Of a DNA stretch of 64,000 nt, positions 1 to 63,952 are shown piece after piece (position 1 is the stretch's first letter; each line of letters begins with the position of its first letter). Under the pieces are notes generated by a model. The model saw nothing but the letters and a program-made list of their open reading frames with translations. It was not told the origin of the DNA and searched no databases. Origin of the DNA: a virus (taxonomy: Duplodnaviria; Caudoviricetes); IMG/VR virus record IMGVR_UViG_3300028048_000001, positions 32,001 through 96,000 of that record. One strand, written 5' to 3'. The position numbers and the translations under genes are program-made.

Positions 1-263
1 GTTGAGACTATATCTTCCTATACAATAAATATATAGGCACGCCCATTTTGAATTTGCTTAAATTCTCAAGAGGTACACTCATCTCTCTTTAGTCGTTGAA
101 CCTTCTTCTGTTCTAGAAGCTTGGCTGCTGATCATCCAATCCTTAATAGTGTAACTATATCAAAATCCTATTATGGTTTGCCATTTATATATCCCTATAT
201 AAATTTAGTCATTAAGGCTCTAAGGATTTTCCAGCAATTAGAGCGTGTTAGGCAATGTTATTT
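1..263 (-). mobile_element. Group I intron 2 (IA-like) in non-virion RNAP beta' gene; 3' end lies beyond the window edge
   Basis: Minus strand: 5' splice site after GAT GGT (DG) with P1 GGU/GCC; core elements AAUUGCUGGAAA (P, ~228-240), AUCAGCAGCCAAG (Q, ~119-133), GAAGGUUCAACGACUA (R, ~90-105), GAAGAUAUAGUCU (S, ~5-17); P3 ACGCUC/GGGCGU. No ORF in the visible part. Confidence 0.9.
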
Positions 264-369
264 ACCATCGAAATCTGCTGCCAACAAAGGCAAAGGTTGA
301 AGGGGAACTGACATTGTATATGTTTCTGTAAATCCTACGCAAAACATACTTAATATACTTCCATAACTA
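264..369 (-). CDS. rpoC: Exon 2 of non-virion RNAP beta' subunit (catalytic ADFDG[D] motif); not in the ORF track
   Basis: Translates to SYGSILSMFCVGFTETYTMSVPLQPLPLLAADFDG. Joined to exon 1 after NRNPTI it gives NRNPTISYGSI...AADFDG, the conserved beta' region. The 5' boundary is uncertain by a few nt. Confidence 0.85.
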
Positions 370-3755: not shown

Positions 3756-4367
3756 TTACCTAATGCAACTCAAAATATCATTATACCAATCCTCAATATC
3801 AGATTCGATATTTTGTGATTTTGCAATATTTCTATATTTAGGAGAATTTCCTATAATCATTATAGAATTAATTACATTAGACATAATTTCTGTTGAAGGT
3901 TTAAATTGAGTAAATTTAGTATGTGTAGTAGCAAACATTTTTCGAGCAGCAGCAACAATTGGTGTATCATGATGCTTATCTTCAAGATATATGATATTAG
4001 AAATACCAGTTTGAATGATAGCTTTAGCACATTCGTTACAAGGAAAGAGTGTAACATAAAGAGTAGAATTTCTCAGATCTTTAATGTCTCCACGATAATT
4101 TAAAATAGCATTAAATTCAGCATGAGATGACCACATATATTTATTATTAGGATCAGAAAGATCTCTGTTAGACCAATCGTACTCTGGATCATCATCAGAA
4201 ATACCATTAGGAAAACCATTATAACCAATAGAAAGAATTCTATCATCTTCAGATACAATAACTGCTCCTACTTGTGTATTAGGATCTTTAGAACGTTTAG
4301 AAATAATTTTAGCAATAAGCATATAAACAGAATCTTTAGATATTACATTGTGTCTTTTATTAGACAT
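3756..4367 (-). CDS. dCMP deaminase
   Basis: RSKDPNTQVGAVIV, GYNG, HAE..A, TLFPCNECAKAIIQ zinc motifs. Confidence 0.95.
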   Translation of the reverse strand: MSNKRHNVISKDSVYMLIAKIISKRSKDPNTQVGAVIVSEDDRILSIGYNGFPNGISDDDPEYDWSNRDLSDPNNKYMWSSHAEFNAILNYRGDIKDLRNSTLYVTLFPCNECAKAIIQTGISNIIYLEDKHHDTPIVAAARKMFATTHTKFTQFKPSTEIMSNVINSIMIIGNSPKYRNIAKSQNIESDIEDWYNDILSCIR

Positions 4368-4420
4368 AAAATAAACCCTCCTAAAAATAATAGTAATAAC
4401 AAGTGAAAATGAAAATGAAA

Positions 4421-4460
4421 AATAAATATCAGTAGAGTAACACTCTACTGATATTTATTT
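4421..4460. terminator. Intrinsic terminator after the free-standing HNH gene
   Basis: AATAAATATCAGTAGAGT-aac-ACTCTACTGATATTTATT inverted repeat. Confidence 0.85.
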
Positions 4461-4482
4461 TATATTAATTAATAAAATAATT

Positions 4483-5787
4483 TTATTTTATTTGATCTTG
4501 TGATATAGGTTTATTTGTAGAAGGGTCTATAAAATAAATTCCATTAATAGGTTTTAATATTTTTTTATTATTACATAATGGCATTGTTAAAGATTCTTCT
4601 ATAGATTTTCCAGATCTGATTCTTTTTGATACAGTTCCTGGGCCAAATCCTATAATTTTATCCCATTGATTATATGAAAATGTATCATCATTATATGTAA
4701 TTAATTTAGGTTTTCTAGAATCAGATACAGGTTCATATAAAGATTTATCCACAGACCAATTTTGTCTAAAATGCCTATCATAAATAAGACCTCTATCTAA
4801 TCCTGTGATTTTTGACCAATCTGATATTGTATGAGATTCTCCATTAGAATCTGTAAGAATTCTCATATATGCATTAACGGGTTCTGTTAATGCTCTTTCA
4901 TCAGGCCATCCATCTTCTTTTCTAGCATATAAAGTAAATGCAGAGATTCCAATTATTGGTTCCCATTCAGCAGCAGTATGAGTAATTCCATTTAGAGTAA
5001 GCTTTATATTATTTCTTCTATTATTTGCTTGAGTAACTCCATCTGTCCATCTACAATTTTCCGGGCAATAGTTTCCATCATTATTTATTCTATCTATACT
5101 TAATCCTGGTTTGTAACCATTAGCCATAGCCCATCTACAAAATGTATCAACACCTGTATCTGGATTTAACCATTCATCACAAATTGAAATTCCTCTTCCA
5201 CCATAATCTTTATATGAATTACGATTAGGGTTATAACATCTTGATTTCATATTATGATATATTTCATATATTGGAGTACCATGCCAACCATGTTTAGTTG
5301 ATACTTCAATTTGAGCACATCCACAACTTTTAGTATGTCCATTTCTTAAATTATGGCCTCTTACTATAACATTATTTCCACAATCACACTTACAAAGCCA
5401 TTGTGTTTCTCTTCCAGAAGTTCCAATAAAATCTTCTGCTCTTTCCAATACTGTAAGTTTACCAAATTTTTTTCCAATCATATTAATTAATTTATTAGAC
5501 TTACATTCTTTACAACAATGAACATTACCATTGAGAAGATTATGGTGTATAACTTCTATAGTATTGCCACAATCACATTTACAAAGCCATCTAGGTTCAT
5601 GTCTTCCAGTAGATGGATAAATATAGTCATCTATTCTTTTAATTACAATTAATTTATCAAATCTTTGATCTTTTAAATCTCTCCATCCTCTTTTTTTAAC
5701 AAATTTAAATTTCATTTTATATATAATATCTCCTTTATTTTTATAATATATAGTTATAAGTACATTAAAAAATAATTTAAATAACAT
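4483..5787 (-). CDS. Free-standing HNH endonuclease with tandem WLCKCDCG repeats; true start probably MKFKFV (5715)
   Basis: Two WLCKCDCGN modules; M..RC.NP....YKDYGGRGI.IC.EW; SIDRINNDGNYCPENCRW; three C-terminal W..I.G repeats; AAAGGAG upstream of 5715. Confidence 0.85.
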   Translation of the reverse strand: MLFKLFFNVLITIYYKNKGDIIYKMKFKFVKKRGWRDLKDQRFDKLIVIKRIDDYIYPSTGRHEPRWLCKCDCGNTIEVIHHNLLNGNVHCCKECKSNKLINMIGKKFGKLTVLERAEDFIGTSGRETQWLCKCDCGNNVIVRGHNLRNGHTKSCGCAQIEVSTKHGWHGTPIYEIYHNMKSRCYNPNRNSYKDYGGRGISICDEWLNPDTGVDTFCRWAMANGYKPGLSIDRINNDGNYCPENCRWTDGVTQANNRRNNIKLTLNGITHTAAEWEPIIGISAFTLYARKEDGWPDERALTEPVNAYMRILTDSNGESHTISDWSKITGLDRGLIYDRHFRQNWSVDKSLYEPVSDSRKPKLITYNDDTFSYNQWDKIIGFGPGTVSKRIRSGKSIEESLTMPLCNNKKILKPINGIYFIDPSTNKPISQDQIK

Positions 5788-8827: not shown

Positions 8828-11434
8828 TTACTCCCTTCCTCTTAATCCAGAAACCGGTTCCATAGGAATTTTACTTCCTTTTCTAGCAAGACCATAATAA
8901 ATTTCTTGCCTTTTTCTTTGTAAATTCTTTTGAATTGTAAGTAAAGCTCTATATTTCTTAGTAGAACCAGTAGACTCTGCTCTTTGAATTTCTCTATCTA
9001 ATACTTTTAATTCAATATCTATTTCATCTAATATTTGCATTTTTTCTTTTCTTGAAGTATAAGCAGATTTAGCCCACATTACTATAGGTCCTAATACTGC
9101 TAGTGTAGCAGCACCAACACTAGCTCCTGCTGAAGTAGCAACTCCAGCAACAGCACCTATACCGGCCCATGTTATAAGAATTTTTATAGATTTAGAAAGA
9201 CTTCTTTTTACTTGTCCAGTGATAATTTCTTCTCTATAATCTGTAGATAATCCATTTTCTATATTTTTACAGAGATGATTAAATTCCATATCAAGATCTC
9301 TAGATAATTCTTTTTCTTTAGTGGATAAATTTTTTAATTTACTTTTAACACCTGTCCATGCTAATTTAAAATCATTAAGAGACAACGGTTTCTTTTCTGG
9401 TTGTTTATATTGTTTATTTTCTTGATCAGATTCTGTATTATTTTTAATATTATTTTTCTTTATATCTTTAGTATTATGAGCAGTATTATAATCTACAGCT
9501 CCAGGTGTTTTCATAGAATTTTTTATTTTATTTGCAGGATTAAGATCATTAACAGCAGATTTTAAATTTACTTTAGCTCTATTAATTGCATCTTCATTTA
9601 TACCCATAACTTGAGCACAGAAATTTAATCTTAAATTATGATCTTCATAAATATCAAAAGGCTCTTTGTCTTTATTATAACAAATATATTTGATATAATT
9701 ATATCTAGGATTTGCTTCTTCTTTACATAATTCTACAAAATCTGTAAATATATTATCATCAGATTCTAAGTATGGACTAAGGATTTCATAAACCAATCCA
9801 GCTTCTTCTGCAGTAATTGTACCAGCATACTTTCTATCATGTAGTTTATCAACAATAGCAAGAATAGGGGTATCAATTAAGTTTTCAAGAAGATTAGTTG
9901 TTTCATTTAAATTACAAATTAAAGATTTTTCATATGTAGTAAATCCTTTATTTAATTTTTGATTTTCTGATATAATTACATCATATTTACTTCTTAAATT
10001 AATATCAAAACTATTTTCTCCAAGAGTATAATATGCATAAGAATCTCTATTATAAAGTATATTATTAAGACAATTAACAGTAGTATTTACAAAATTATAT
10101 GCTTCTTCTATAGAACCTTCATAATTATAAGATGCAATATTTGTAGAAATATGATTATTAGCATCTATATAATTCATAATATTATCATCATTAATATCAT
10201 CTTCATCTCTTTTTATTCTATGAATATTAAGAGGAGATTCTTTTGCAGAAGTTTTCTCTATAGTAGATAAGAAATCTCCAGCTGTTTGAGAATCTGTAAT
10301 AAGATTATTTATCTTGAATGGATCAATTTCATTAGAAGTAAAAGATACTCTTTCTTTATTACCATCAGCGTAATAAATATCGTTATTTATATCGGCTTCC
10401 CAAATATTAGTAAGATTTTCTACCAAACTATCTGTATCTTGAATATTATTCTCTTTAATAATATTTATTATATTATGTGCTTCACTTCCAGATACAAATT
10501 CTAAATTTTCAAAAATAGTTTTAGGATCAAAATCGATATTATTAATTTTAGTAAAATCATTAATAATATTATTAATTTCTGTAAGGGCAATAATATCATT
10601 AAGATTAGATTTTGCAATTTCTATAAGAGAATCTATAGATTTATTAGAATCTAACTTCCATCTATTAATCCTATCCATCCAATAAGAACTGTTTTTATTA
10701 GAAGATTCTGTTAAAAAACTGATATTTTTATCAGATGCTAAAGGTAAAACTCTAGATTCTTCTATAGCTCTTTTATAAGAATTAATATCTTCTTTTGTAT
10801 TACTATCTCTTAATAAAAAATAATTAGTTACATTTTCTACTATATTTTCTACAGGAATTTCTATTCCTTCTGAATAACATAAATAAGAAACTTCTTCTAA
10901 TACAATATTCATTTTAACAAAAGGAGATAAAGTATAAGTATCTACTTTTTCACAAATAGAAAATATTTTTTCTTTATCTGATTTTGCTTTATTAGAAAAA
11001 GATTCTAATTTAAATTTTTTAGATAAATTTTTATGATTTTTAATAATTCTATCTATTCTTTTATACATTTTAGCAGTTTCTACTAATCTATCAATATTAA
11101 TATCTCCAATATTAGAAGATCTAATAATATCAAGACAATCTCCAAGATTAGCATTCTCTACTAATGGAATAATATCATTAATAACCACTTGACAATATTT
11201 TTCAAGCAATTCATAATCATCTTTTTCATATAAAGATTCAAGAACTGAAATTGCAGATTTGTAATCTGTACATGAATTAAAGAAATTTTCTAATCTCCAT
11301 TTATATAGAGACTTATTAGAATCATCAGATAAATAATTAATATCATAATTAGATGATTCTGCAATACTATTTCTTTTTTCAAGATATCTTTGTCTCTTAT
11401 ACACGTACTTTAAATTTAATGGTTTACTAACCAT
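8828..11434 (-). CDS. Putative virion head (internal/core) protein
   Basis: In the capsid operon behind a late promoter; many hydrophobic-X-E sites; C-terminal small-residue hydrophobic segment plus coiled coil. Confidence 0.55.
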   Translation of the reverse strand: MVSKPLNLKYVYKRQRYLEKRNSIAESSNYDINYLSDDSNKSLYKWRLENFFNSCTDYKSAISVLESLYEKDDYELLEKYCQVVINDIIPLVENANLGDCLDIIRSSNIGDINIDRLVETAKMYKRIDRIIKNHKNLSKKFKLESFSNKAKSDKEKIFSICEKVDTYTLSPFVKMNIVLEEVSYLCYSEGIEIPVENIVENVTNYFLLRDSNTKEDINSYKRAIEESRVLPLASDKNISFLTESSNKNSSYWMDRINRWKLDSNKSIDSLIEIAKSNLNDIIALTEINNIINDFTKINNIDFDPKTIFENLEFVSGSEAHNIINIIKENNIQDTDSLVENLTNIWEADINNDIYYADGNKERVSFTSNEIDPFKINNLITDSQTAGDFLSTIEKTSAKESPLNIHRIKRDEDDINDDNIMNYIDANNHISTNIASYNYEGSIEEAYNFVNTTVNCLNNILYNRDSYAYYTLGENSFDINLRSKYDVIISENQKLNKGFTTYEKSLICNLNETTNLLENLIDTPILAIVDKLHDRKYAGTITAEEAGLVYEILSPYLESDDNIFTDFVELCKEEANPRYNYIKYICYNKDKEPFDIYEDHNLRLNFCAQVMGINEDAINRAKVNLKSAVNDLNPANKIKNSMKTPGAVDYNTAHNTKDIKKNNIKNNTESDQENKQYKQPEKKPLSLNDFKLAWTGVKSKLKNLSTKEKELSRDLDMEFNHLCKNIENGLSTDYREEIITGQVKRSLSKSIKILITWAGIGAVAGVATSAGASVGAATLAVLGPIVMWAKSAYTSRKEKMQILDEIDIELKVLDREIQRAESTGSTKKYRALLTIQKNLQRKRQEIYYGLARKGSKIPMEPVSGLRGRE

Positions 11435-11501
11435 AATTTAGAGCCCTTTCATATAGGATATTAATATAAAGTTAAATTTTAGATATTTAAAGAAAAATAT
11501 A

Positions 11502-11606
11502 AAAAATAAATCCCCATAGAGTTTTTTACTCTATGGGGTTAAGGAGAAATAATGTTCGCTGATAAGAAAAATCAGCGATGAGTGATAAAATGATATATTC
11601 TATCAT
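11502..11606 (-). ncRNA. Candidate sRNA A exposing an anti-SD/anti-AUG sequence
   Basis: Early-type promoter (11604-11626), 5' AU hairpin, hairpin TCGCTGAT/ATCAGCGA, single-stranded CAUUAUUUCUCCUU, terminator CCCCATAGAG/CTCTATGGGG plus U-tract. Confidence 0.6.
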
Positions 11607-11617
11607 TATTATAATAT

Positions 11618-12694
11618 TTAATTGAATTTATATATACTTTCACTGATTCTATCAGGTGTTACACCAAAATCTTTTTCATTAATCATATTATTTCTATGTA
11701 TATATAGATTTGCTCCAAATTGTTTGATAAATTCTTTTATTTGTTTCATCTTTTCATCAGTTCCAAATTCATCATTATCTGGATATACATGTACATCAAA
11801 GAAAAAAATTTCATAAGATACAATCAAATGAGTTATAAATCCTAAATAGCTACTTCCAGTAATAGCAGCAAATATACCATCTTCATATCTTCTTAAATTA
11901 TATTTTATTGATAATATATCAAACGGACCTTCTGCTACATGAATTTGTATTTTCTTTGGTATAGTTAAATCTATATTTGCTGGCATAACATACATTTTTT
12001 CTGTATTATCTATTTTATTATGTATATTATAATTTATATATCTTTTATCTATGCCTTTATATAAAATTCCTTCATTATACATTCTTCTTAAATTTACAAA
12101 ATTATTATCTAAAGATAAAAATCCAACGAAATTATCATTTAAAGAATTTATTATATTTATATGTCTTGTATAATAAGAATTATTATTTGTATTCATATTG
12201 TTCGATATATTATATCTATTATAATCTAATAAATCTTTTAAATTTAATATAATTTTTTGTTTTAAGCATTCTTCTATTGTTAATTCTACACCAATTCTAT
12301 TTTTAATATATTCAATTTTCTTATAAGCAAGATTTATATTATTTACATGATTATATATTGGATAATGAAAAGAATTATATCCTTTAAATTTATTATTAGA
12401 AATAGCTTTATTTATTAATTTATCAGTTTCTATTGCTATTTCTGGATTATAAATTCCCCATTCTATAAGTGTTTTACTATTTATAACACCAGATATTTGA
12501 CATTTAAAACAATGATATACAGGGCAATCATCTTTATCTTGTGGAATATGAATATACATATGTCCATGAGTTATATCTTTTGAATCCCCACATGAACGAC
12601 ACCTAACAATTATTTCACGATTTTGACTAGCTAATTTTGCTTCTGGAAAATTAGATATTATAAATTGAGCAAACTGCTCTCCAAATTCAAACAA
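11618..12694 (-). CDS. DNA primase (Zn-finger + TOPRIM), TTG start
   Basis: RCRSCGDS...H.Y...YHCFKC zinc finger; VAEGPFD and YPDND TOPRIM motifs; KDFG. Confidence 0.85.
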   Translation of the reverse strand: MFEFGEQFAQFIISNFPEAKLASQNREIIVRCRSCGDSKDITHGHMYIHIPQDKDDCPVYHCFKCQISGVINSKTLIEWGIYNPEIAIETDKLINKAISNNKFKGYNSFHYPIYNHVNNINLAYKKIEYIKNRIGVELTIEECLKQKIILNLKDLLDYNRYNISNNMNTNNNSYYTRHINIINSLNDNFVGFLSLDNNFVNLRRMYNEGILYKGIDKRYINYNIHNKIDNTEKMYVMPANIDLTIPKKIQIHVAEGPFDILSIKYNLRRYEDGIFAAITGSSYLGFITHLIVSYEIFFFDVHVYPDNDEFGTDEKMKQIKEFIKQFGANLYIHRNNMINEKDFGVTPDRISESIYKFN

Positions 12695-12763
12695 TTATTT
12701 TACCCCCTTTCACATTTATAATATTTATATGAAAGGATATTTAATTTTCTTCTTTGAATCTCA

Positions 12764-13141
12764 CTATAAAAATATCATTAATATTAATATTAATAAAATA
12801 CAAAGTATAGTAGATTCTACTAATAATATCCAAGTATTATATAATTCATATAATGTAAGTATAGTCATTAAACCAAATACAAGTAATAATCCGATACTGT
12901 TATATAAAAATAATTCTAAAAAGAATTTTATTTTTAAATTATACTTATTACAACGCTTATTAATAAATGATAAGCAAATAGTTCCTATTATGCCAATTAT
13001 AAAAACAATTCCTATTGGATGAGTATAAAATTTATATTTTATGAAATAATAAATTGTACTAAATATTAATAAACAAAAATCTATTAAAAGCATACATATT
13101 AAAATTATTGAAAATTTCTTTAAATTATTTATAATTTTCAT
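12764..13141 (-). CDS. Putative membrane protein (~4 TM)
   Basis: Four hydrophobic segments; AGGAG RBS. Confidence 0.6.
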   Translation of the reverse strand: MKIINNLKKFSIILICMLLIDFCLLIFSTIYYFIKYKFYTHPIGIVFIIGIIGTICLSFINKRCNKYNLKIKFFLELFLYNSIGLLLVFGLMTILTLYELYNTWILLVESTILCILLILILMIFL

Positions 13142-13160
13142 TTTAATGGCTCCTAAAAAT

Positions 13161-13187
13161 AAAGAGAGAACATATAGTTCTCTCTTT
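13161..13187 (-). terminator. Intrinsic terminator
   Basis: AAAGAGAGAAC-atata-GTTCTCTCTTT. Confidence 0.8.
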
Positions 13188-13195
13188 ATATATTT

Positions 13196-13663
13196 TTAAA
13201 TTTCTACATCAAATCTAATTTCATTATCATTTTGCCTTGATATATTTACAGCTCTACCAGTATTTTCTGTAGATATAGATATTACCATTGGAAGATTTGC
13301 TTTAAAAAATTCTTTCATCATTGGTAATTCACATATTATGAAAAATATATCTCTATATTTTAATAATTCATTTGGCAGTATATGAGATTTAAAGTTCATT
13401 TGTGATAAAGAAAACATAAATTTAGATTTATCTGTCATTAATGAATTAATGGTTTCTCCAATATGATTCATGCCATAATCATATATTATTCTACCAAGCA
13501 TTGATACATAAAAATCATCTTTTAAATTAAAAAATACTGGAAATAATTTACCATTATCATCTTCTGTAAACATTAATCTAAATTCATCATTTTTATTAGG
13601 ATCAATAGAATTTAAATCATCTAATTGAACTGACATTTTGCTTATATCTTTTATAGAACTCAT
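13196..13663 (-). CDS. Hypothetical protein (start corrected to MSSIKD)
   Basis: AAGGAG RBS before ATG at 13663; the upstream extension in the ORF track overlaps the structured RNA. Confidence 0.75.
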   Translation of the reverse strand: MSSIKDISKMSVQLDDLNSIDPNKNDEFRLMFTEDDNGKLFPVFFNLKDDFYVSMLGRIIYDYGMNHIGETINSLMTDKSKFMFSLSQMNFKSHILPNELLKYRDIFFIICELPMMKEFFKANLPMVISISTENTGRAVNISRQNDNEIRFDVEI

Positions 13664-13688
13664 AATATCTCCTTGATAAAAAATAAAA

Positions 13689-13899
13689 ATGGGTGAGGGA
13701 GGGATCTCACCTCCCACGATAGCTTAGCAGGGTCAGACATTCTAATGCCACGTTCAATGAAGAGTCAAATCTGGCCAGATTTCCAAGGTTGAGTTATGGT
13801 CATTATTAATGAAATCCTCTTCAAAGCTTATCCTCAGAAAAACACGTTCTTCTTCTGATGCTATCTCCCTCTTGCGTCTATTACTTCCGCCATCACCCA
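13689..13899 (-). ncRNA. tRNA-like structured RNA (~210 nt) with no anticodon arm and an expanded variable-arm domain
   Basis: Acceptor-like UGGGUGA/UCACCCA; U8G9 and Leu-type D arm GCGGAAGUAAUAGACGC; stem GAUAGC/GCUAUC enclosing ~130 nt; T arm GGGAGG-UGAGAUC-CCUCCC; GC-rich island followed by a U-tract. Confidence 0.7.
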
Positions 13900-13929
13900 T
13901 TATAAATAAGTACTTATTATAATAAATTA

Positions 13930-14175
13930 TTAATTAATAAATCCTAAATTATCATTTAATGCTTTTTCAAAATCTTTAAATTTTTCATTTGTCATTGTAA
14001 TAGAAATGCATCTTTTGTCATTAAAATTACCATGTATATGAATATTTTTAAAATCTTTTGGATCTCCATCTTTCATTGAAATAATAATACTATCTGTTTC
14101 ATAACTTTCTATAGCATACAAATTTATTACTATATCATCGTTTAATCTATATAACATTTTACAAGACTTTCTCAT
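13930..14175 (-). CDS. Small hypothetical protein, paralog of 14525-14749
   Basis: YRLN...VINLY.IESY ... F..FE.A....LGF shared; AGGAGG RBS; early-type promoter. Confidence 0.8.
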   Translation of the reverse strand: MRKSCKMLYRLNDDIVINLYAIESYETDSIIISMKDGDPKDFKNIHIHGNFNDKRCISITMTNEKFKDFEKALNDNLGFIN

Positions 14176-14289
14176 TATTGATTTCCTCCTTTTGTTAAAT
14201 AATATATTTTATATCATATTTATAATATATCTTTGAAATGAATTTATAAAAATTATCCAATAGGAGGAAACTTCTATTAGTTTTATAAA

Positions 14290-14405
14290 AAAAAATAAAA
14301 TTTATTGACCCAGAGTGATTAAACTCTGGGTCGATGGGAGAAATAATGCTGACCAATTATATTGGCCTAAAATGATAATAATGATAGAATATAATATTTT
14401 ATCAT
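14290..14405 (-). ncRNA. Candidate sRNA B, paralog of sRNA A
   Basis: Early-type promoter (14403-14426), 5' AU hairpin, hairpin GGCCAAU/AUUGGUC, single-stranded CAUUAUUUCUCC, terminator GACCCAGAGT/ACTCTGGGTC plus U-rich tail. Confidence 0.6.
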
Positions 14406-14524
14406 TATTATAATATCTAATTGAAATTAGATATAACTTCACTAATTTTATCTGAAGTTATATCATAAAAATTTATTTATTACATACTTCTACTATCTCT
14501 CACAAATAATATTATTTTTTTATA

Positions 14525-15556: not shown

Positions 15557-15760
15557 TTAGCTTTCACCTAGTTTATTATTATCAACATATGGCATAAATT
15601 CTAATAAAGCATTTTCAACTTCAAAAAATACATCTTCTCTATTATTGTCTTTAAATTTAACAGATAATACATCTGATTTTTCACCATTAAAAGTAATATA
15701 ATCTACATTATCCATATTTATTATATGCTTACCAAATTTAGATGTTATAGCTATTAACAT
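15557..15760 (-). CDS. Small hypothetical protein
   Basis: AAAGGAG RBS; IINMDNVDYI segment loosely like the two downstream paralogs. Confidence 0.7.
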   Translation of the reverse strand: MLIAITSKFGKHIINMDNVDYITFNGEKSDVLSVKFKDNNREDVFFEVENALLEFMPYVDNNKLGES

Positions 15761-15812
15761 TATAACTCCTTTTAAAAATGTATTTTATTATAATATGTTA
15801 ACAAAATAAAAA

Positions 15813-15842
15813 ATATAGGGGTTACAAAGTAACCCCTATATA
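15813..15842 (-). terminator. Intrinsic terminator
   Basis: ATATAGGGGTTAC-aaa-GTAACCCCTATAT. Confidence 0.9.
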
Positions 15843-17441
15843 TTAACACATTAAAATGAATGTTTCTACTTCTTCTATGATAATATTAATAGCTACTGTT
15901 TCCAATCTTTTTCCATTTATAGTAGGGTCTAAATCAACAATACTAAAATCCGATGAAATTATTGTTGCAATGATACTAAGAATATTATCAATAATATTTT
16001 CGTTTTTATATTTTTCTAATATTCTTGGATAAGAAGGAGAAGCTTCCACTAAGATTTTCTCTTTCTTATTTATAGTTTTTCTGCTTACAAGCTTTTCAAC
16101 TTTTCCAGATATAATATAAGGAAGAATAATCATGTTTTTACTTTTCAAAATCTTTTTAGCAGCGATAATTAATTTTACATATTCTTCTCTATTAATAGAA
16201 TGAATACTTTGTGTGTCTTTAAACCATCTATAAAACATTGAGAATATTAACTGTTTCTGGAATGGATTAATAGTGTAACCACCTTCTGGAGTCATTAATA
16301 CATTTCTCATATAAAGATCAATCTCTAAAGGATCAAATGGACCAAATTGAACTTCAATATTTCTCATGCAAACTTGTCCATTAATCTTATTCTGAAGATA
16401 TAACCCTTCATTCATTCTAATCAGATTGCTTTCAAATTTATCAAAATCTGATATAGAATCGTTATCTCTTTTTGATGAAGATATTGGAACATATGAAAAT
16501 TCAAATGATATATCTGTAATCTTATATGATGTATTTTTTCTAATACTTGCATAATTAAAACTAATAATATTTTTATCAAAAGTGTATTTCGGCATAATAT
16601 TAAGAATTATATTTTGTACCGAATCGGTAGAGTGAGTAGTAATATCTATTGATCTGATATCTTGCTTAATCCATATACCTTGATTATTTTTCTGATTAGC
16701 TATTACATTAGTATATGCAGTATCATATAATTTAGAATATATATCAATAGAAGTTTCCATATGAAGTATTCTATCATAAAAACTTAGCAGATAATCATCT
16801 ATATTTATATCTAATTTATGCATATAAGCATAATTAGTTAATAATGGTATACAAAGATCCATAATTATTGACATTTTATGTAATAATTTTGCATGTTCAT
16901 TTGTATACTGTAATGATGGGGATTTAATATTTGTATAATTTAAAACTTGATAATAATTATCATCAACCATCTGCTGAACTTTATTTGCTATATTAGAGTA
17001 TATAATATATCTTTCCATATCATAGAAAAACATTTCTATTGGATAAGATAAAACTTCAAATCTATCTATCTTAGATTTCATAGCAACTAATATAGATAAA
17101 TATTCATTATCTGTATCATAATAATTACAAAAATAATTTAAATATTTAAAAAGGTGCTCTCTCATTGCTACAGAATTGTAGCATTTTTTTGTTGATAAAA
17201 TAAATTTATTAAAATTATCTCCAAGACCAATAGATATATTGAAGTAAACACTTAAAGGTGCTATAAAAAATCCAGGTCTACAACTTATTATTACCTCTTC
17301 CATATCTTGAGGCCACCATTGGTCTACAGGAACAAATTTTCTTCCTTGATTCGATTTTGATTTTCTTTCTATCCTGTCCATAAAGTATATGGCAGGAACT
17401 TTCCCTTCTGTTATTTTATTAATGTCACTCATGTCGCACAT
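15843..17441 (-). CDS. Non-virion RNAP promoter-specificity (sigma-like) subunit, AR9 gp226 homolog
   Basis: Collinear with AR9 gp226 as recalled: LQYT....K.....S..M...IP.L; KLY...Y..V.........IW; I.PK......IS; E.NL.R..(E/Q)G; C-terminal EEV. Lies near a chaperonin, as gp226 and gp228 do in AR9. Confidence 0.8.
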   Translation of the reverse strand: MCDMSDINKITEGKVPAIYFMDRIERKSKSNQGRKFVPVDQWWPQDMEEVIISCRPGFFIAPLSVYFNISIGLGDNFNKFILSTKKCYNSVAMREHLFKYLNYFCNYYDTDNEYLSILVAMKSKIDRFEVLSYPIEMFFYDMERYIIYSNIANKVQQMVDDNYYQVLNYTNIKSPSLQYTNEHAKLLHKMSIIMDLCIPLLTNYAYMHKLDINIDDYLLSFYDRILHMETSIDIYSKLYDTAYTNVIANQKNNQGIWIKQDIRSIDITTHSTDSVQNIILNIMPKYTFDKNIISFNYASIRKNTSYKITDISFEFSYVPISSSKRDNDSISDFDKFESNLIRMNEGLYLQNKINGQVCMRNIEVQFGPFDPLEIDLYMRNVLMTPEGGYTINPFQKQLIFSMFYRWFKDTQSIHSINREEYVKLIIAAKKILKSKNMIILPYIISGKVEKLVSRKTINKKEKILVEASPSYPRILEKYKNENIIDNILSIIATIISSDFSIVDLDPTINGKRLETVAINIIIEEVETFILMC

Positions 17442-17522
17442 TTCTCCCTAATGCACAATATAGTTAATAAGTTATACTTTTTCAAGTATCATATTTATAA
17501 TATATATCTATTATAAATTTTA

Positions 17523-18711: not shown

Positions 18712-20544
18712 TTAATAATGAGAGGTTAATGCTGGCGCTTGCAAAATAGCCTGATTAGCAGTATACATGATTGTAATAATCTTAGAAATAGTATCTAAAA
18801 TTACAGGTTCAGATTCAATTGATGTAAGCACTAATCCATCATATTTTTTAGTATTAATATTATAAGGCTTTCCACCTTCTAAATAAATATTGTCAATAAT
18901 AGTATCTATAACTTCATCATTGAAGACTGTTCTATATAGAGATCTGATCATGTTAGCATATGCTTCATTAATAATTTTAATCATATTATATAAATCTCTA
19001 TTTTCAAAACCATTTCTTTCAATCATATCTCTTGTGATACAATATCCCATTGTGTTGGCACCATATCCAACACCATTTTTTGCTGCAGAACGAGTATTAA
19101 GTACAGCATCTTCTACAAGATCTCTCAAAGAATCTCTATCAGAAATTGAAATTCCTCCAATAAATAATTCAACCATATTAGCTTTAACAGCATTTAATTG
19201 TCTTTTAAGAGATCCAAGTATACCAATATTTCCACCTTGTTCTGAATTCGATTTATATTGTGCTTCTAAGAAATTTATAATATTATTGTATGTTTTACTA
19301 TATATAGGATATCCTTCTTCATCTAATTTAATATCACCTTTTTCATCTTTTTCATACATTTTTTCTGGATCGATAAATCTGGTAATATTAGCATCGGCTT
19401 CTACTTCTCCAGCTGTACCATAGAATTCGCATACGTTTTTTAAAGTAGGAGCTAATCCGCTGTCTTGATCAGCTTTATGAATTTTATCATCAATATATTT
19501 TTTGATTGGTTTACATCCACAAAGATTAGATATATGATCTACATAATTTTCATCAAGTCCAGCATAATTTGTTACAATAAGTAATTGTGGTTTTTGAGAA
19601 TATTCAGATTCACTAAATTGAAGAAGCATTTGAACAACTCTTCTCATATATGCATGAGCATCCCTACTAATTTGTGGAGCTAAAATAACAGTAGGAATTT
19701 CTCTTTGCCTATTTGATCTTTTTCTCATTATATTTTCTTCAATAATTTCAACGAATAAAGCCAATTGTTCACTAGTATCGATTGACTCAGCAAATTGATA
19801 AATATGTACAGGATATGTTTCTGTAGATCTTATACGACAATCATTTCTTTCAAGATTATTAATCATAGCAGGGTCAGAATATCCAGCCTCAATTGTAATA
19901 CCATTATATGCTTTTACATATGTATTTTCATTTGTTGAAGCTGATACATCAATAAAAACAGACATTCCATAATCTTTATAAATTTGCTGAATTTGTTCAG
20001 CAATTTCAGCACTACCATTAGTAGATATATAAGCTATATTATAAATATCGTCAATAGTACAAGCTCTTCCATTTTCTCTTACTTTTTCACTAATGAGTTC
20101 AACACATTTTTTAAATAATCTCATTGTATCATATGGATCATATCCGAATTCTCCATTAAGATATGCTTCATTTAAAGCATCAAAAATCAATGAAGACATT
20201 ACTACTATAGATGAAGTACCATCACCAACAGTTTTTTCTATATATCTAGTAGAATTTTCAATTTCAGATTTAATAGCCATTTCAATAGGATATTGATATT
20301 TAATACTCTTAATAATTTTATTACCATCTTTTGAATATTCTGCAACAATATCCTGATCAGAAGATCCTCTTAAAATAAGAGAGTTAGAACCAGCTGGGCC
20401 CATTGAATTGATTATTGCTTCTTTAAGATCATTTAAAACAGAAGATTGAATTTCCTTAAGTTTCTGTCCAGATACAATGTTGTTAACAGGCTTTGATGAA
20501 TTTACTATTACTTTAGGTATTACTCTATTTTCATTTTTCATCAT
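18712..20544 (-). CDS. groEL: Phage GroEL-like chaperonin
   Basis: SMGPAG, SKDG, GDGTSS nucleotide-binding motif, VEDAV..TRSA...GVGYGA. Confidence 0.92.
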   Translation of the reverse strand: MMKNENRVIPKVIVNSSKPVNNIVSGQKLKEIQSSVLNDLKEAIINSMGPAGSNSLILRGSSDQDIVAEYSKDGNKIIKSIKYQYPIEMAIKSEIENSTRYIEKTVGDGTSSIVVMSSLIFDALNEAYLNGEFGYDPYDTMRLFKKCVELISEKVRENGRACTIDDIYNIAYISTNGSAEIAEQIQQIYKDYGMSVFIDVSASTNENTYVKAYNGITIEAGYSDPAMINNLERNDCRIRSTETYPVHIYQFAESIDTSEQLALFVEIIEENIMRKRSNRQREIPTVILAPQISRDAHAYMRRVVQMLLQFSESEYSQKPQLLIVTNYAGLDENYVDHISNLCGCKPIKKYIDDKIHKADQDSGLAPTLKNVCEFYGTAGEVEADANITRFIDPEKMYEKDEKGDIKLDEEGYPIYSKTYNNIINFLEAQYKSNSEQGGNIGILGSLKRQLNAVKANMVELFIGGISISDRDSLRDLVEDAVLNTRSAAKNGVGYGANTMGYCITRDMIERNGFENRDLYNMIKIINEAYANMIRSLYRTVFNDEVIDTIIDNIYLEGGKPYNINTKKYDGLVLTSIESEPVILDTISKIITIMYTANQAILQAPALTSHY

Positions 20545-21194
20545 TTATCTTCTCCATAATTAGAATAATTTTTTCCTATAGATACAAATTCATTATATAA
20601 AGCTAAATTATTATCTGTATCTCTTATATAAATAGCATTATATCTTTTAGGAGATATATAAATCTTCTTTTGCACAATATCTGTTAAATTATTATTTGTA
20701 AAAAAAATATAATCTTTTACATAATATACATCTTTTGATGCTAAATTTCTTTTATCTTTATTATCGGTTGTTTTACTTATATTAAAAAATCTATATATTT
20801 CTTCTTCTTCTAATTTATCATTTATAAATATTACTGGATTAATTCCTAAATTATTACAATTAGCAAACATCATTGATATAAATAAATTTATATTTTTATA
20901 AGTAAGAGATCTATGAATTATATCTTTTTTATAAGTATCAAAAAAGCTTTTATATAATTCATCTATATCTGGTAAATTTTCTTCTGTAGATATTATAGAT
21001 AAAGGGTTCCAATTTAATCGAGAATATAAGAGTGATAGAATATATCTATCACTCTTATTTAATATATCTAATTTGAAGACTCTATCATCTTGGAATTTTT
21101 CTCTAATAAATCTAATTAGGCCTATATCTGTATCTACAAGAAAATTAAAATCTATTAATGTAGATAATACTCTACCACCTAAATTAGTATTCAT
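20541..21194 (-). CDS. Hypothetical protein
   Basis: ATGA overlap with the chaperonin gene; LIDF..LVDTDIGL N-terminus. Confidence 0.75.
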   Translation of the reverse strand: MNTNLGGRVLSTLIDFNFLVDTDIGLIRFIREKFQDDRVFKLDILNKSDRYILSLLYSRLNWNPLSIISTEENLPDIDELYKSFFDTYKKDIIHRSLTYKNINLFISMMFANCNNLGINPVIFINDKLEEEEIYRFFNISKTTDNKDKRNLASKDVYYVKDYIFFTNNNLTDIVQKKIYISPKRYNAIYIRDTDNNLALYNEFVSIGKNYSNYGEDK

Positions 21195-41535: not shown

Positions 41536-44500
41536 TTAAAGTGTACTAGAAATAGATTCTAATTTTTGTATAATAGAAGAAATATCAGCATTAATATTAT
41601 TTACTTGATCTTGATTAGTAATAGTAGTTGAATTAGAATTTACTGTAGCAGTAATTCCAGCTAATTTAGAAATAAGATCAACAATAGTAGGTAATGCGGC
41701 TTCATATTTACTATTATCAGCAATAGTCTTTAAATATTCAAGAATACTATTAAGGGATGCAGTATCTATTCCTCCAGCAACATATCCTCCAGAATTAGAA
41801 TTGTAAGTTCCTCCAGATGAATAAGAAGAACCAGAATTAGTTGTTCCAGAAGAAGATTTATTTGCTTTGGCATAATTATTATTCTGCATCTTCCTGATAG
41901 CTTCGTTATCAGCTTCCCAAGAAGCAGCAGCTTTATTTCTATTAATAGTTTCATTAATAGCTCTTTGTTCATCATCCCAAATCTTAGCAGCATTCTTTAT
42001 ATAATAATTATTATTCTGCATCTTCCTGATAGCTTCGTTATCAGCTTCCCAAGAAGCAGCAGCTTTATTTCTATTAATAGTTTCATTAATAGCTCTTTGT
42101 TCATCATCCCAAGAATCTAAATAATGCTTGCCGTATTTAGAACTACTAGTACCAGCTTTACCACCAGTAAAATTATATAATTGTAATCCAGATCCTGAAG
42201 CAATTGTTGCACTCCAATCTGGTCTTCCAAATCCAGTAAGTTTTTTATCCATAGAACTTCCATCACCTAAAGTCCACTGATGTCTAGCAACAACACCACC
42301 ATTACGGTTAAACTTATTACTGGATCCAGTATTACCTTCAAGAGTAGAAATCTGTTTTCCATTAACAGTTTCAACTAATCCAGTATGCGATGATCCGTTC
42401 TTAAATATAACAATATCACCTGGTTGAGGATCATTAGTCATAGCTCCAGCACGTTTAAAATTATCCCATAATCCAGATACAGCTGCAGATGGTGAACCTC
42501 TAAGAGCTTTATTTCTGGCTGTTTTATCTCCATTAAATGTTTTGTCCATAACCCATGATACAAAAGAAGCACACCATGGTTGACCGTCCATTCCCATAAA
42601 TTTACCATAATCGGTAATATTACCATTATTGGAACCTTCAGGTCCTTCAACAACACCTAACTGAGATTGTGCTATCTGAACCATAGACTGAGGAGTTCCT
42701 TTACCTTGAGGAGCAGGTTTTGCCTTTCCACCATATTGAGGTGTATTATCTCCACTCATAGATGTTTGAATAGTACTATTAGCACTTTCTCCACTTGTTA
42801 CAGTAGAACCATCAGATGATGTAGAATTGCTAGATGTTCCTCCAAGATTAAGTCCACCAGTAAAAAGTTTAAATATAGAACCAGCTTTACCTGTTAATTT
42901 ACTTCCAATAGCACCAAATACACTACTAAATGCACTTGAAAGTATTCCAGCTAAATTAGTAGGTTTAGAAGAATTTCCAAATGCATCTCCATTAGAAGCA
43001 CCACTAGAACTTGATGTTCCAGTAGAATAGCCAGCAGGAGCTGTTACAGTACCATCAGCACTAATATTATAATGAGCATCACCATGCTTCGATCTCATTT
43101 CTTCAGATGTATATCCAAAAGGATCAGATCTATCATCTGGGAAACTATAGAATGTCCACTTAGATCCATATTTATTTGTAATTTGAGTTTGATTAGGAAC
43201 ATAAGCAGATCTATTCTTTTTATCAATCGAAGGATTGGTAGAAGATATATCAGAGAAGCAATCATGCTCATTAATATATCTAGGCATAGTACGTTTACCG
43301 TTATTAAATATATCAGTAGCTGCAGCTAAAGCAGTATCTTCAATTTTAACTGATCCTGCAGCACCTTGTTCATAACGATTTTTACCATCAGCAAACCAGT
43401 TTTGTCCTTTTGGTTTAGTAAGATATGCAACAAGATTTTGAGCAGTAGCTCTAGAATCATCTTTCATATCAATGAGGTTTGCCATAAGTGAAGCTTCAGC
43501 ATATCTAGCTTGTACTTTACCTTGTTCATGCTGAATAATATTAGCAACACCTTTAAGTTGAGAATCTGTAAGATTATAAGTTGGGAAGCTTATAGTTTGT
43601 CCTCCACCAGATTCTCCTAATGTTGTAGGAGCACCAAAACTAGTATCTTTTGGTGGTTCTTTAGTAAATTTATCATAATAAGTTTGACCATAAGAAGCTC
43701 TAGTGGAACTATGTGACATAGCATCTTCAGGAGATTCAAAATCAGTTAAAACTTTATTAGAAGCTTCAGCTAAACTAGTAGTAGTTTTAAGTGTATTATA
43801 TACTCCAGGATACTTATTCTGTAACTCATAGAGTAAATACTCTAATTGTGTTTGTTTATCAGAAATAGATACACCTTTTTGCTTAACAAGATCATATAAT
43901 CCTTGTTTTCTTCCAAAACTTGTCCATTGGACTAAGCCATATCCATTCTGACCAAAATAAGTACCATCAGACTTTTGTCTAGAAGTCTTCCATGGCATTC
44001 TAACAAATTCATATTCAGGAATAACTCCAAAAGTAGGCTTAAGATTTTGTTCAGCACTACCTTTAAGTCCTTGTTTTAATCCTTTATCAACAGCAGCAGT
44101 ATAAGAATCACTATCATATGTAAATCCATAATCTCTATTATAATCATGAGATTGAATATTACTCTTTTTAATAGAAGAAGCTTCTACTTTATTAGATTTT
44201 AATCCAGATTCTGCATAGAGATTACCCATTAAACCTGCTACACCAGCATCTGTAAATCCAGCAGATTTAAGATAATTCCATATTGCTCCGTCATCAGCTT
44301 GAATTGCATTACTTCCACCACCAGTAAGTACTCCAAGCTTAGCTTTATTAATTATATTCTTATTATATATTGCAGGTGCTCTTAATTCAGGATCATCAAT
44401 TAATACATGACCTTTAGAATCTGATCCTCTAGCTACAACATAATGAGGATTAGGTCCAAAAGGAGAATTAATTTTAGATCTATTAGATCTATCTTGTCCT

Positions 44501-53283: not shown

Positions 53284-53803
53284 ATGTAGTACCTATCACC
53301 TTTCCATTTTCATCCGAAATAATCCAATCTGGTGTTTTATTTATAGATTTTATTCCACCATGTTCAGGAATAAGTACTTTACTATTATTAGAAGGTACTC
53401 TTGCTTCTCTTGCTGAAATATTTTTCCAAGCAAGCTGAATATCTGAATCTATTCTTCCTCCCAAAGGAAGTTTTCTTCCAGTTTTAAGATAAGTATAAGT
53501 AAATTCTTTTGATAAATTTACCATACCCTGTGCATCAGTTTTAGTAAATTCATATTTATCTGCAAGTTCTGTAGCTTCTTTAATAGGAATTTTAGTAATA
53601 CTTGATACAGCATTGGCTACAATTTTTCTTAACTCTCTTGAAGGATAATAAGTCTCTACTCCATTTAATGTACCATAAATTTTAGTAGAATATTCTGTAT
53701 CATTCATAAGAGCTTTCATTACAGTAACTTCATCTTTTTTTGAAGAAGATTTTTGTTTTACATTATCTGTTACAATTTTGATTACTTCTCTTGCATTCTC
53801 CAT
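53264..53803 (-). CDS. Hypothetical protein, possibly DNA-binding (start MENARE)
   Basis: GAAGGAG before ATG 53803; YL.TGRK..L segment. Confidence 0.65.
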   Translation of the reverse strand: MENAREVIKIVTDNVKQKSSSKKDEVTVMKALMNDTEYSTKIYGTLNGVETYYPSRELRKIVANAVSSITKIPIKEATELADKYEFTKTDAQGMVNLSKEFTYTYLKTGRKLPLGGRIDSDIQLAWKNISAREARVPSNNSKVLIPEHGGIKSINKTPDWIISDENGKVIGTTYDNKCD

Positions 53804-53939
53804 TATTTTCTCCTTCATCATTATTATCTATAAATGTAATAGCATTTGCCATTTTTTTCTTTCCATGTTGTGATATAAATTTATTTAATTCTTCTGGTGT
53901 AGTAGAACATAATATTTTATAAAAATTTTCTTTTTCCAT
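53763..53939 (-). CDS. 58-aa small protein below the ORF-track cutoff
   Basis: AGGAG RBS; MEKENFYKILCSTTPEELNKFISQHGKKK...; late-type AACT-atcaaa-TA upstream. Confidence 0.6.
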   Translation of the reverse strand: MEKENFYKILCSTTPEELNKFISQHGKKKMANAITFIDNNDEGENNGECKRSNQNCNR

Positions 53940-63563: not shown

Positions 63564-63952
63564 TATTTTCTCCTATTATATATTTGAATATTTTTTATCT
63601 GTTCATCTATCCAATCTTTTCTATCTATAGAAACCATACCAGAATTATGATCTACCCAAATAGCATAATCCGATTCACCACAATTAAGAAATTCATAATT
63701 TCTTGGAAAAGTAGAAAGAATATCAATAACTTCTCCTACTGTATAATTATCAAATTCTCTTTTTTCAATTCCATTATTGATATCTTTTTCGTTAATTTCT
63801 TTAATTTTTGCATTACTAATAGATTTTATCTCTGGCCATTCATCTGTATTAATAAATGTTTCAATATGATGATCTACACATTTTGCTAACTCTTCAAATG
63901 CATTATTTTCAATTTCTACAATCATAGATATATTTACTTTTTTAGTTTTCAT
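63563..63952 (-). CDS. Hypothetical protein
   Basis: GGAGG RBS. Confidence 0.75.
   Translation of the reverse strand: MKTKKVNISMIVEIENNAFEELAKCVDHHIETFINTDEWPEIKSISNAKIKEINEKDINNGIEKREFDNYTVGEVIDILSTFPRNYEFLNCGESDYAIWVDHNSGMVSIDRKDWIDEQIKNIQIYNRRK

Follow-up and report, generated by a model that had tools for sequence, protein, structure and literature searches.

Cassette A, a short segment directly downstream of the DNA primase gene of a jumbo phage, is very probably a real, conserved gene for a structured non-coding RNA. At more evenly balanced odds, the predicted RNA of about 100 nt would block the translation of phage messages through a single-stranded pyrimidine tract, with the leader of a sigma-like late transcription factor as the likeliest conserved target. 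The window analyzed here (64,000 nucleotides) was taken from a complete virus record of 274,241 bp (bases 32001-96000), which has terminal repeats and a G+C content of 26.6% and is referred to below as genome G000. The gene content of this phage includes multisubunit RNA polymerase pieces, a chaperonin and group I introns, and its ribosome-binding sites are strong AGGAG-type sequences lying mostly 7-9 nt from the start codon; on these grounds, the phage belongs with the AR9-like jumbo phages. A DNA search of GenBank phages returned no match, and single-protein locus searches of IMG/VR with the neighboring 868-aa protein or the primase found no relatives; the IMG/VR relatives described below were reached solely by alignment-based search.

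The RNA of cassette A spans 11604-11501 on the minus strand, which contains no ORF in the cassette. Its elements follow in the order promoter, hairpin 1, hairpin 2, unpaired pyrimidine tract and intrinsic terminator. All of them are present by fold and by sequence, as an earlier sequence-only reading had proposed when it described a stand-alone minus-strand unit free of genes. The primase gene (11618-12694, minus strand; phrog_19847, E = 9e-42) ends with a stop codon at 11620-11618 that adjoins the promoter (11603-11617). Hairpin 1 (11584-11604, 21 nt) begins at the predicted 5′ end of the RNA, and hairpin 2 (11556-11578) consists of 7-8 bp closed by a 7-nt loop. The 17-nt tract (11539-11555) has a mean unpaired probability of 0.99 and carries the core UAUUUCUCC, preceded by CAU in this copy. 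The terminator (11501-11538) is formed by an 11-bp G+C-rich stem at 11538-11512 and a T run extending to 11501. The minus-strand fold has a minimum free energy of -37 kcal/mol (z = -6.97), which none of 200 shuffled sequences equaled. Also borne out was the proposal that the unpaired tract is antisense to an ideal initiation region: the corresponding 16-mer lies at 11541-11556, with its antisense reading on the minus strand. Cassette A is accordingly laid out as an independent transcription unit without a conserved ORF, with promoter consensus and terminator on one strand. From the gene layout, the terminator would be common to the primase mRNA and the small RNA.

The promoter agrees with a known early class. 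Its core 7-mer ATATTAT occupies 11617-11611 and is followed by a 6-nt spacer and a predicted start G at 11604. The 15-nt sequence at 11617-11603 is identical to a motif found repeatedly upstream of genes throughout the genome, where its usual place is behind a terminator and 30-100 nt before a ribosome-binding site; the strict core ATATTAT-N6-G occurs within 110 nt upstream of 34 called genes of G000. In Bacillus phage AR9, the experimentally mapped early promoter is AAATATATATTAT-(6N)-G+1; the injected virion polymerase can use it before any new protein has been made (PMC5312081). The segment 11617-11604 fits this consensus in being AT-rich and in ending with ATATTAT, six nucleotides and an initiating G. 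The assignment of an early-type promoter by the sequence-only reading was thus upheld, for a promoter known here from sequence alone. Because of this match, we infer that the RNA is transcribed early. By analogy with the AR9 promoter, transcription would start at G 11604, which is the first base of hairpin 1, and would yield an RNA of about 100 nt.

A search of the whole window against Rfam at gathering thresholds returned a group I intron alone and no match for cassette A. Over the region 11400-14500, with E values up to 10 admitted, Rfam gave noise only, and the best score over the cassette was that of the trpB motif (21 bits against a threshold of 59); no Rfam family, C4 and RsaE/RoxS included, thus reached its gathering threshold there. 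Nine distinct sequences of the family were assembled: cassette A, a second copy B in the same genome, and the copies L015, L151, L011, G001/L154, L010/L210, L209 and L060. The suggestion that A represents a new phage sRNA family is borne out by these nine sequences with their covarying helices, their conserved exposed tract and the lack of an Rfam match. The family is new in this sense, and the mechanism proposed for it below is of a kind already known.

The members of the family have the same layout. The promoter consensus is kept to within one mismatch in every copy inspected. The tract core is invariant in all nine distinct sequences, where it is preceded by CAU, CAC or CACA. Hairpin 2 differs in sequence in every lineage, and its pairing is always kept. 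Covariation was counted on seven of the nine distinct sequences in a model-fitted alignment, since MAFFT alignments misalign the hairpins; such an alignment leans toward the structure and so favors pairing, and the folds of the individual sequences agree with it independently. Across the seven sequences, 92% of cells are paired and 13 of the 26 pairs are changed on both sides, values reached by none of 500 shuffles. When the partners were slid by 1-3 columns as a control, pairing fell to 33-45%. All three helices covary: helix 1 has 85.7% of cells paired and two pairs changed on both sides, hairpin 2 has six of its seven pairs changed on both sides, and helix 3, the terminator stem, is 100% paired with 5 of 10 pairs changed on both sides. 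The conserved structure with its compensatory changes is joined by a conserved, accessible seed: in four members the tract is unpaired with a probability of 0.94-0.99 and in two with 0.74-0.76, and in the L010 group the value is lower, at 0.50-0.60.

The genomic position of the cassette is also largely constant. It follows the primase stop codon in every copy except B and L060, the latter being a short contig without an upstream gene. The carriers behind the primase are L015/L016, L151, L011-L014, L010/L210, L209 and the IMG/VR genome G001 (L154/L155). Primase homologues are abundant in metagenomes, and the contigs with the closest ones show the primase, a short gap and a gene of about 860 aa. 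The cassette is absent from the primase 3′ end in L150 and L153, whose primase is 73% identical and is followed by a plain terminator, and also from L152, L017 and L022. L150 and L153 keep the terminator, the same downstream promoter-like element and the downstream gene. On the strength of these cassette-less relatives, the module of promoter, two hairpins and tract looks like an insertion ahead of the primase terminator.

Searched with two covariance models of the family (R1 and R2), all of G000 yielded A and B only, and G001 yielded one copy; the sequence-only reading had suggested searches of this kind in this genome and related jumbo phages. Genome positions 133369 and 145878, considered as further copies in G000, are not cassettes. 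A separate contig, L182, was matched by model R1 (E = 1.5e-5) and not recovered by R2; it is possibly a distant analogue only.

The second cassette, B, proved to be real and lies at 14288-14425 on the minus strand. Its promoter (14416-14402) is followed by a start G at 14403, and its RNA runs over 14403-14288. By fold and alignment, it consists of hairpin 1 (14403-14383), hairpin 2 (14367-14351), the tract (14350-14333), the terminator (14332-14307) and a T run to about 14288. B lies between small genes, in a gap that relatives share but in which they have no cassette, and beyond it the next gene has an early promoter of its own. Directly upstream of B, the alignment of A and B remains similar for about 55 nt beyond the promoter, into the coding end of the primase of A, and marks a primase 3′-end remnant of about 17 codons plus stop at 14417-14470 (minus strand). 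This remnant shows, on the evidence of the alignment, that a copy located behind a primase gene gave rise to B. B shares 62% identity with A, as against 75-76% with the copies of L015 and L151. Because B is closer to those copies than to A, G000 thus appears to combine a unique type A at the canonical site with an L015/L151-like type B at a new site; the origin of this two-type state would be either a duplication or an exchange between phages.

We then asked which sites might be partners of the tract. With duplexes of -10 kcal/mol or better counted, it pairs with 132 of the 299 initiation regions of G000 (about 44%), compared with 3% of random windows, so its specificity may be low; shuffled tracts pair with initiation regions more weakly than the real one. 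The invariant core complements the commonest Shine-Dalgarno-plus-spacer form of G000. The exact 12-mer complement turns up three times in 274 kb: once in each of the two cassettes and once at an ORF of 17 codons. No long gene of G000 and no gene of G001 carries it. The sequence-only reading had singled out the starts of two genes as partners. Both do match the tract if one inserted base is allowed, at 63561-63573 for the 849-aa gene and at 53801-53813 for the 179-aa gene, but they are not special targets, as their G001 orthologues lose the match (-10.3 and -10.8 kcal/mol). Within G000, the A tract pairs best with a 548-aa early gene (genome position 105350, L215:9451-11097), at its leader and start; the duplex has -23.1 kcal/mol, which is 4.4 better than the next. 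Among the phages compared, an A-type copy is present in G000 only, and A is, by its predicted pairing, the most generic member of the family. The RNA probably acts by covering ribosome-binding regions, a reading to which we give about even weight.

A candidate target was found by ranking orthologous initiation regions in G000 and G001, using 226 reciprocal best hits with a mean identity of 69%. It is the leader of a 532-aa gene at 15843-17441 (minus strand), which has its own early promoter at 17489-17503. The product matches chain A of PDB 7S01 (464 aa) at E = 1.4e-6, over residues 76-495 against 32-434, and phrog_25005 at 6e-15; the 464-aa chain is present only in holoenzyme PDB entries. In AR9, the promoter specificity of the non-virion (late) RNA polymerase is conferred by a sigma-like subunit, the 464-residue gp226 (PMC9209446). 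By homology over most of its length, the product is a sigma-like subunit of the AR9 gp226 type. Duplex ranks and the fold of the leader hairpin place the best conserved predicted target site at 17436-17451 (minus strand), in the loop and 3′ arm of a Shine-Dalgarno hairpin.

For a uniform ranking, the 28 nt before each terminator were compared with positions -32 to +10 of every called gene. The B tract of G000 placed the sigma-like leader first of 299 (-22.5 kcal/mol), and the G001 tract placed its own first of 324 (-24.0 kcal/mol, the next best being -20.1). The A tract placed it fifth of 299 at -17.3 kcal/mol. The G002 tract placed its sigma-like leader first of 323 by a narrow margin (-20.9 versus -20.7), and that of G003 placed it 50th of 303. 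The leader is thus ranked first in three of five tract-genome tests, fifth with A and 50th in G003, at a site that is sticky in shuffles: when the UCUCC core was kept and the flanks were shuffled, the sigma-like leader still came first in 5/40, 2/40 and 1/40 trials. Owing to this stickiness, the per-genome significance is about 0.03-0.13, not 1/300. B and G001 are moreover homologues facing an identical target core and represent non-independent tests, and opening the target site would cost 6-8 kcal/mol.

A further comparison was made between clades. In more distant relatives, whose primase is 51-56% identical, a non-coding stretch of 440-480 nt follows the primase and ends in a pyrimidine tract before the terminator. 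In the complete genome G002, the tract and the sigma-like leader both differ in sequence from those of the G000 clade, and the tract covers the start codon and the next bases; as this tract stands at the end of a non-coding stretch of about 480 nt, it may not belong to the same RNA family. Non-cognate clade pairs have ranks of 43-61 overall: with the G001 tract, the leader of G002 comes 48th and that of G003 43rd, and with the G002 tract, the leader of G000 comes 61st and that of G001 57th. Within the family, a G-to-A substitution has altered an arm of the Shine-Dalgarno hairpin in the L010-type leader; the 5′ arm compensates for it, and the L010-type RNA tract matches the changed leader over 15 contiguous pairs. 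For the family as a whole, these comparisons make the sigma-like leader the most likely conserved target. That the sigma-like subunit is a principal target of the family is a narrower claim, which we hold tentatively and at clearly less than even weight.

The foremost alternative is that of the sequence-only reading, a general translation silencer: the early RNA would cover many host and/or phage ribosome-binding sites, with no privileged target. The excess of initiation regions over random windows among the tract's partners speaks for such a role, as does the complementarity of the invariant core to the commonest form of ribosome-binding site, and in each of the four genomes the A tract gives the sigma-like leader a high rank, suggesting generic pairing. 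However, one small RNA could hardly silence hundreds of messages stoichiometrically unless it were very abundant, the flanks of the tract vary between lineages in step with one leader, and the two gene starts first named as partners lose their match in G001. We consider general silencing unlikely. The same earlier reading had offered, next to host shut-off, a part in the early-to-late switch, and as the comparative ranking points to the sigma-like subunit, this idea would fit the data better than general silencing.

A slightly less probable alternative assigns the structured RNA a role without pairing, either as a protein-binding decoy or in stabilizing the 3′ end of the primase message, so that the tract would be a protein site instead of a seed. 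The shared terminator and the location of the unit in the primase 3′ untranslated region in nearly all phages would suit this role, as would the long structured non-coding region at the equivalent position in G002 and G003, and the targets of the RNA are predictions only. Against it, every copy inspected has retained its own promoter consensus, B resides away from any primase gene, and the close relatives L150 and L153 do without the cassette. The match between tract and leader is furthermore reciprocally clade-specific.

Two further readings carry far less weight. The cassette could be a leader or attenuator of the downstream 868-aa gene, its terminator being read through under some condition, and the order of promoter, hairpins, terminator and gene allows this, as does the absence from A of a second early promoter before the 868-aa gene. 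This is very improbable: a conserved promoter-like element resembling the AR9 late form AACA-N6-TA (here AACT-N6-TA, 11473-11462) separates the terminator from the 868-aa gene and is present in cassette-less relatives as well, the gene that follows B is served by a separate early promoter, and another gene intervenes in L015 and L151. Least probable of all is the plus-strand coding alternative of the earlier reading (the peptide MFADKKNQR), a minigene like lambda bar or a micropeptide: a near-ideal Shine-Dalgarno, a 5-nt spacer and an ATG do exist in A and B, each with 9 codons and then TGA, but the coding reading is rejected because this opposite-strand frame is not conserved across the family (9, 9, 8, at least 17, at least 16, 4, 1, 1 and 1 codons, with unrelated peptides and GTG in two copies), no consensus promoter is visible on the plus strand in the region read, all neighboring genes run the opposite way, and the promoter consensus, the covarying hairpins and the T run fit the minus strand.

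Under the preferred reading, a translational repressor acting on phage messages, the injected virion RNA polymerase would transcribe the RNA early from the promoter at the primase stop codon. The RNA would begin with hairpin 1 and end at the terminator it has in common with the primase message, and these two elements are assumed to be its stabilizing ends. The 17-nt single strand between hairpin 2 and the terminator would pair with the Shine-Dalgarno and spacer of phage messages and thereby block 30S binding. In the sigma-like leader, where the Shine-Dalgarno is predicted to lie in the loop of a small hairpin, base pairing with the RNA would take in the loop together with the 3′ arm, and synthesis of the late factor would be limited or delayed. 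Copy B would be the best fit to this target; copy A would be more generic, with its best match at the 548-aa early gene.

We tentatively extend this to a more specific proposal, in which the family would be a built-in timer of the early-to-late switch in AR9-like jumbo phages. The injected polymerase would make the RNA alongside the sigma-like message, the RNA would invade the Shine-Dalgarno hairpin, and the late factor would be held back until the message outnumbers the RNA; the seed would co-evolve with the leader across clades, and duplicates such as A would be free to drift to new early targets. If confirmed, this would amount to RNA-level control of the transcription program in phages that bring their own polymerases, and to a compact, portable translational repressor module. 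In this family, the anatomy of the gene is clear, covariation is strong, the seed is conserved, and the candidate target, the factor that switches on late genes, can be tested; even with the wrong target, the family would be a solid addition to the catalogue of phage non-coding RNAs.

Several known systems share parts of this design. In Firmicutes, host-encoded sRNAs of the RoxS/RsaE type pair a single-stranded pyrimidine motif with the Shine-Dalgarno of several messages, and they have several C-rich motifs, often in loops. The RNA of cassette A has instead one U-rich CUCC tract between a hairpin and the terminator, with no Rfam match. The 3′-UTR sRNAs of the DapZ/MicL type are transcribed from their own promoter in or at the end of the upstream gene, use a shared terminator and expose a single-stranded seed; they are enterobacterial and Hfq-dependent. 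Cassette A resembles them in its promoter at the end of the primase gene, the terminator common to the primase mRNA and the single-stranded seed, whereas its promoter is of the phage virion-RNAP type.

Among phages, the c4 antisense RNA of P1/P7 (Rfam C4) and the sar RNA of P22 pair an exposed segment with the region around the ribosome-binding site of a phage message and block its translation (PMC12197685). The likeness lies in a phage-encoded small RNA with an exposed anti-ribosome-site segment, as proposed for cassette A. However, c4 arises in temperate phages by processing of the very operon transcript under its control, whereas the RNA of cassette A would have its own promoter and terminator, belongs to a virulent-type jumbo phage, lies about 6 kb from its proposed target and matches no Rfam family in sequence or structure. 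Small RNAs are on record from lytic as well as jumbo phages. In the jumbo phages 201phi2-1 and phiKZ, transcript mapping uncovered short sRNA units in which a terminator comes soon after the start site, one of them conserved between genera; no target, seed or mechanism was proposed there (PMC11512511; PMC8244752). The RNA of cassette A is, by comparison, known from its sequence only but comes with a conserved seed and a candidate target, and the lineages are unrelated, Pseudomonas phiKZ-like phages there and AR9-like phages here.

Broader scans were also made. A loose scan for promoter-then-terminator units was too noisy to be of use, and a survey of the late-promoter motif gave an enrichment of only about 2-fold and serves here as context alone. 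The long RNA of L018 contains no convincing anti-leader tract. The first pattern scan of IMG/VR gave one chance match and the second gave chance matches only; a leader-motif scan of IMG/VR returned the two known relatives and unrelated prophages only. None of the 120 stretches from the pattern scan of prokaryote genomes is real, and the metagenome pattern scan gave 119 stretches, one of which, L060, is a real member of the family.

A possible distant analogue of the cassette was found directly 3' of the primase gene in a phage whose primase shows only 36% identity (L182:1965-2106). This unit comprises a promoter-like site, a pair of hairpins, an unpaired segment that includes CUCCUU, and a terminator. 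The unit was matched by R1 (E = 1.5e-5) and missed by R2, the two covariance models built from the small RNA family.

Relatives with primases 51-56% identical carry a non-coding stretch of 440-480 nt 3' of the primase gene (L020:5066-5692; L156-L159 and L163 at ~4030-4560; G002:27520-28100, in a complete relative genome), which structure modeling predicts to be highly structured. A pyrimidine tract lies at its end, ahead of a terminator. The stretch may represent a larger RNA related to the small one, or else a different RNA. In a further relative, L018, the same early promoter is present at the primase stop, but the non-coding stretch of ~330 nt that it drives (L018:5057-5400) differs, with a hairpin loop in which CCCUC is abundant.

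Within the phage's own genome, the 12-nt "ideal start" sequence complementary to the core of the small RNA tract has a third exact copy outside the window, at genome positions 133369-133383 (L216), the other two lying in cassettes A and B. This copy heads an ORF of merely 17 codons on the minus strand, is located ~95 nt downstream of a plus-strand promoter-like site, and has no terminator. Inside the window, a near-consensus early promoter with one mismatch occurs on the minus strand at 21026-21073, directly followed by a perfect 8-12-bp hairpin resembling hairpin 1 of the cassettes. Because both elements fall within the region encoding the N terminus of ORF 20541-21194 as listed, the start of this ORF may have been miscalled.

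The sigma-like (gp226-type) gene has a leader (window 17400-17503, minus strand; also L207:8170-8260 and L210:4900-5003) with a small hairpin that exposes the Shine-Dalgarno sequence in its loop and is preserved between phage clades through compensatory changes. Between the Shine-Dalgarno sequence and the AUG lie 11 nt, an unusually long spacer. On the 3' side of this gene's terminator, the minus strand of window 15560-15842 contains a promoter-like site together with an ORF of 67 aa; the ORF starts at 15760 with a strong ribosome-binding site, and no family match was found for it.

A 3585-aa ORF includes two perfect 109-nt repeat copies 132 nt apart (window 41872-42112). A group I intron was identified by Rfam on the minus strand at window 1-302 (54.5 bits), truncated by the window edge, and a core sequence shared with it recurs 1.4 kb away on the same strand (~1529-1565). 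In one relative, L151, the sequence that lies between the primase gene and a gene of 81 aa (2401-2877) resembles an uncalled coding sequence for a small homing-endonuclease-type protein.
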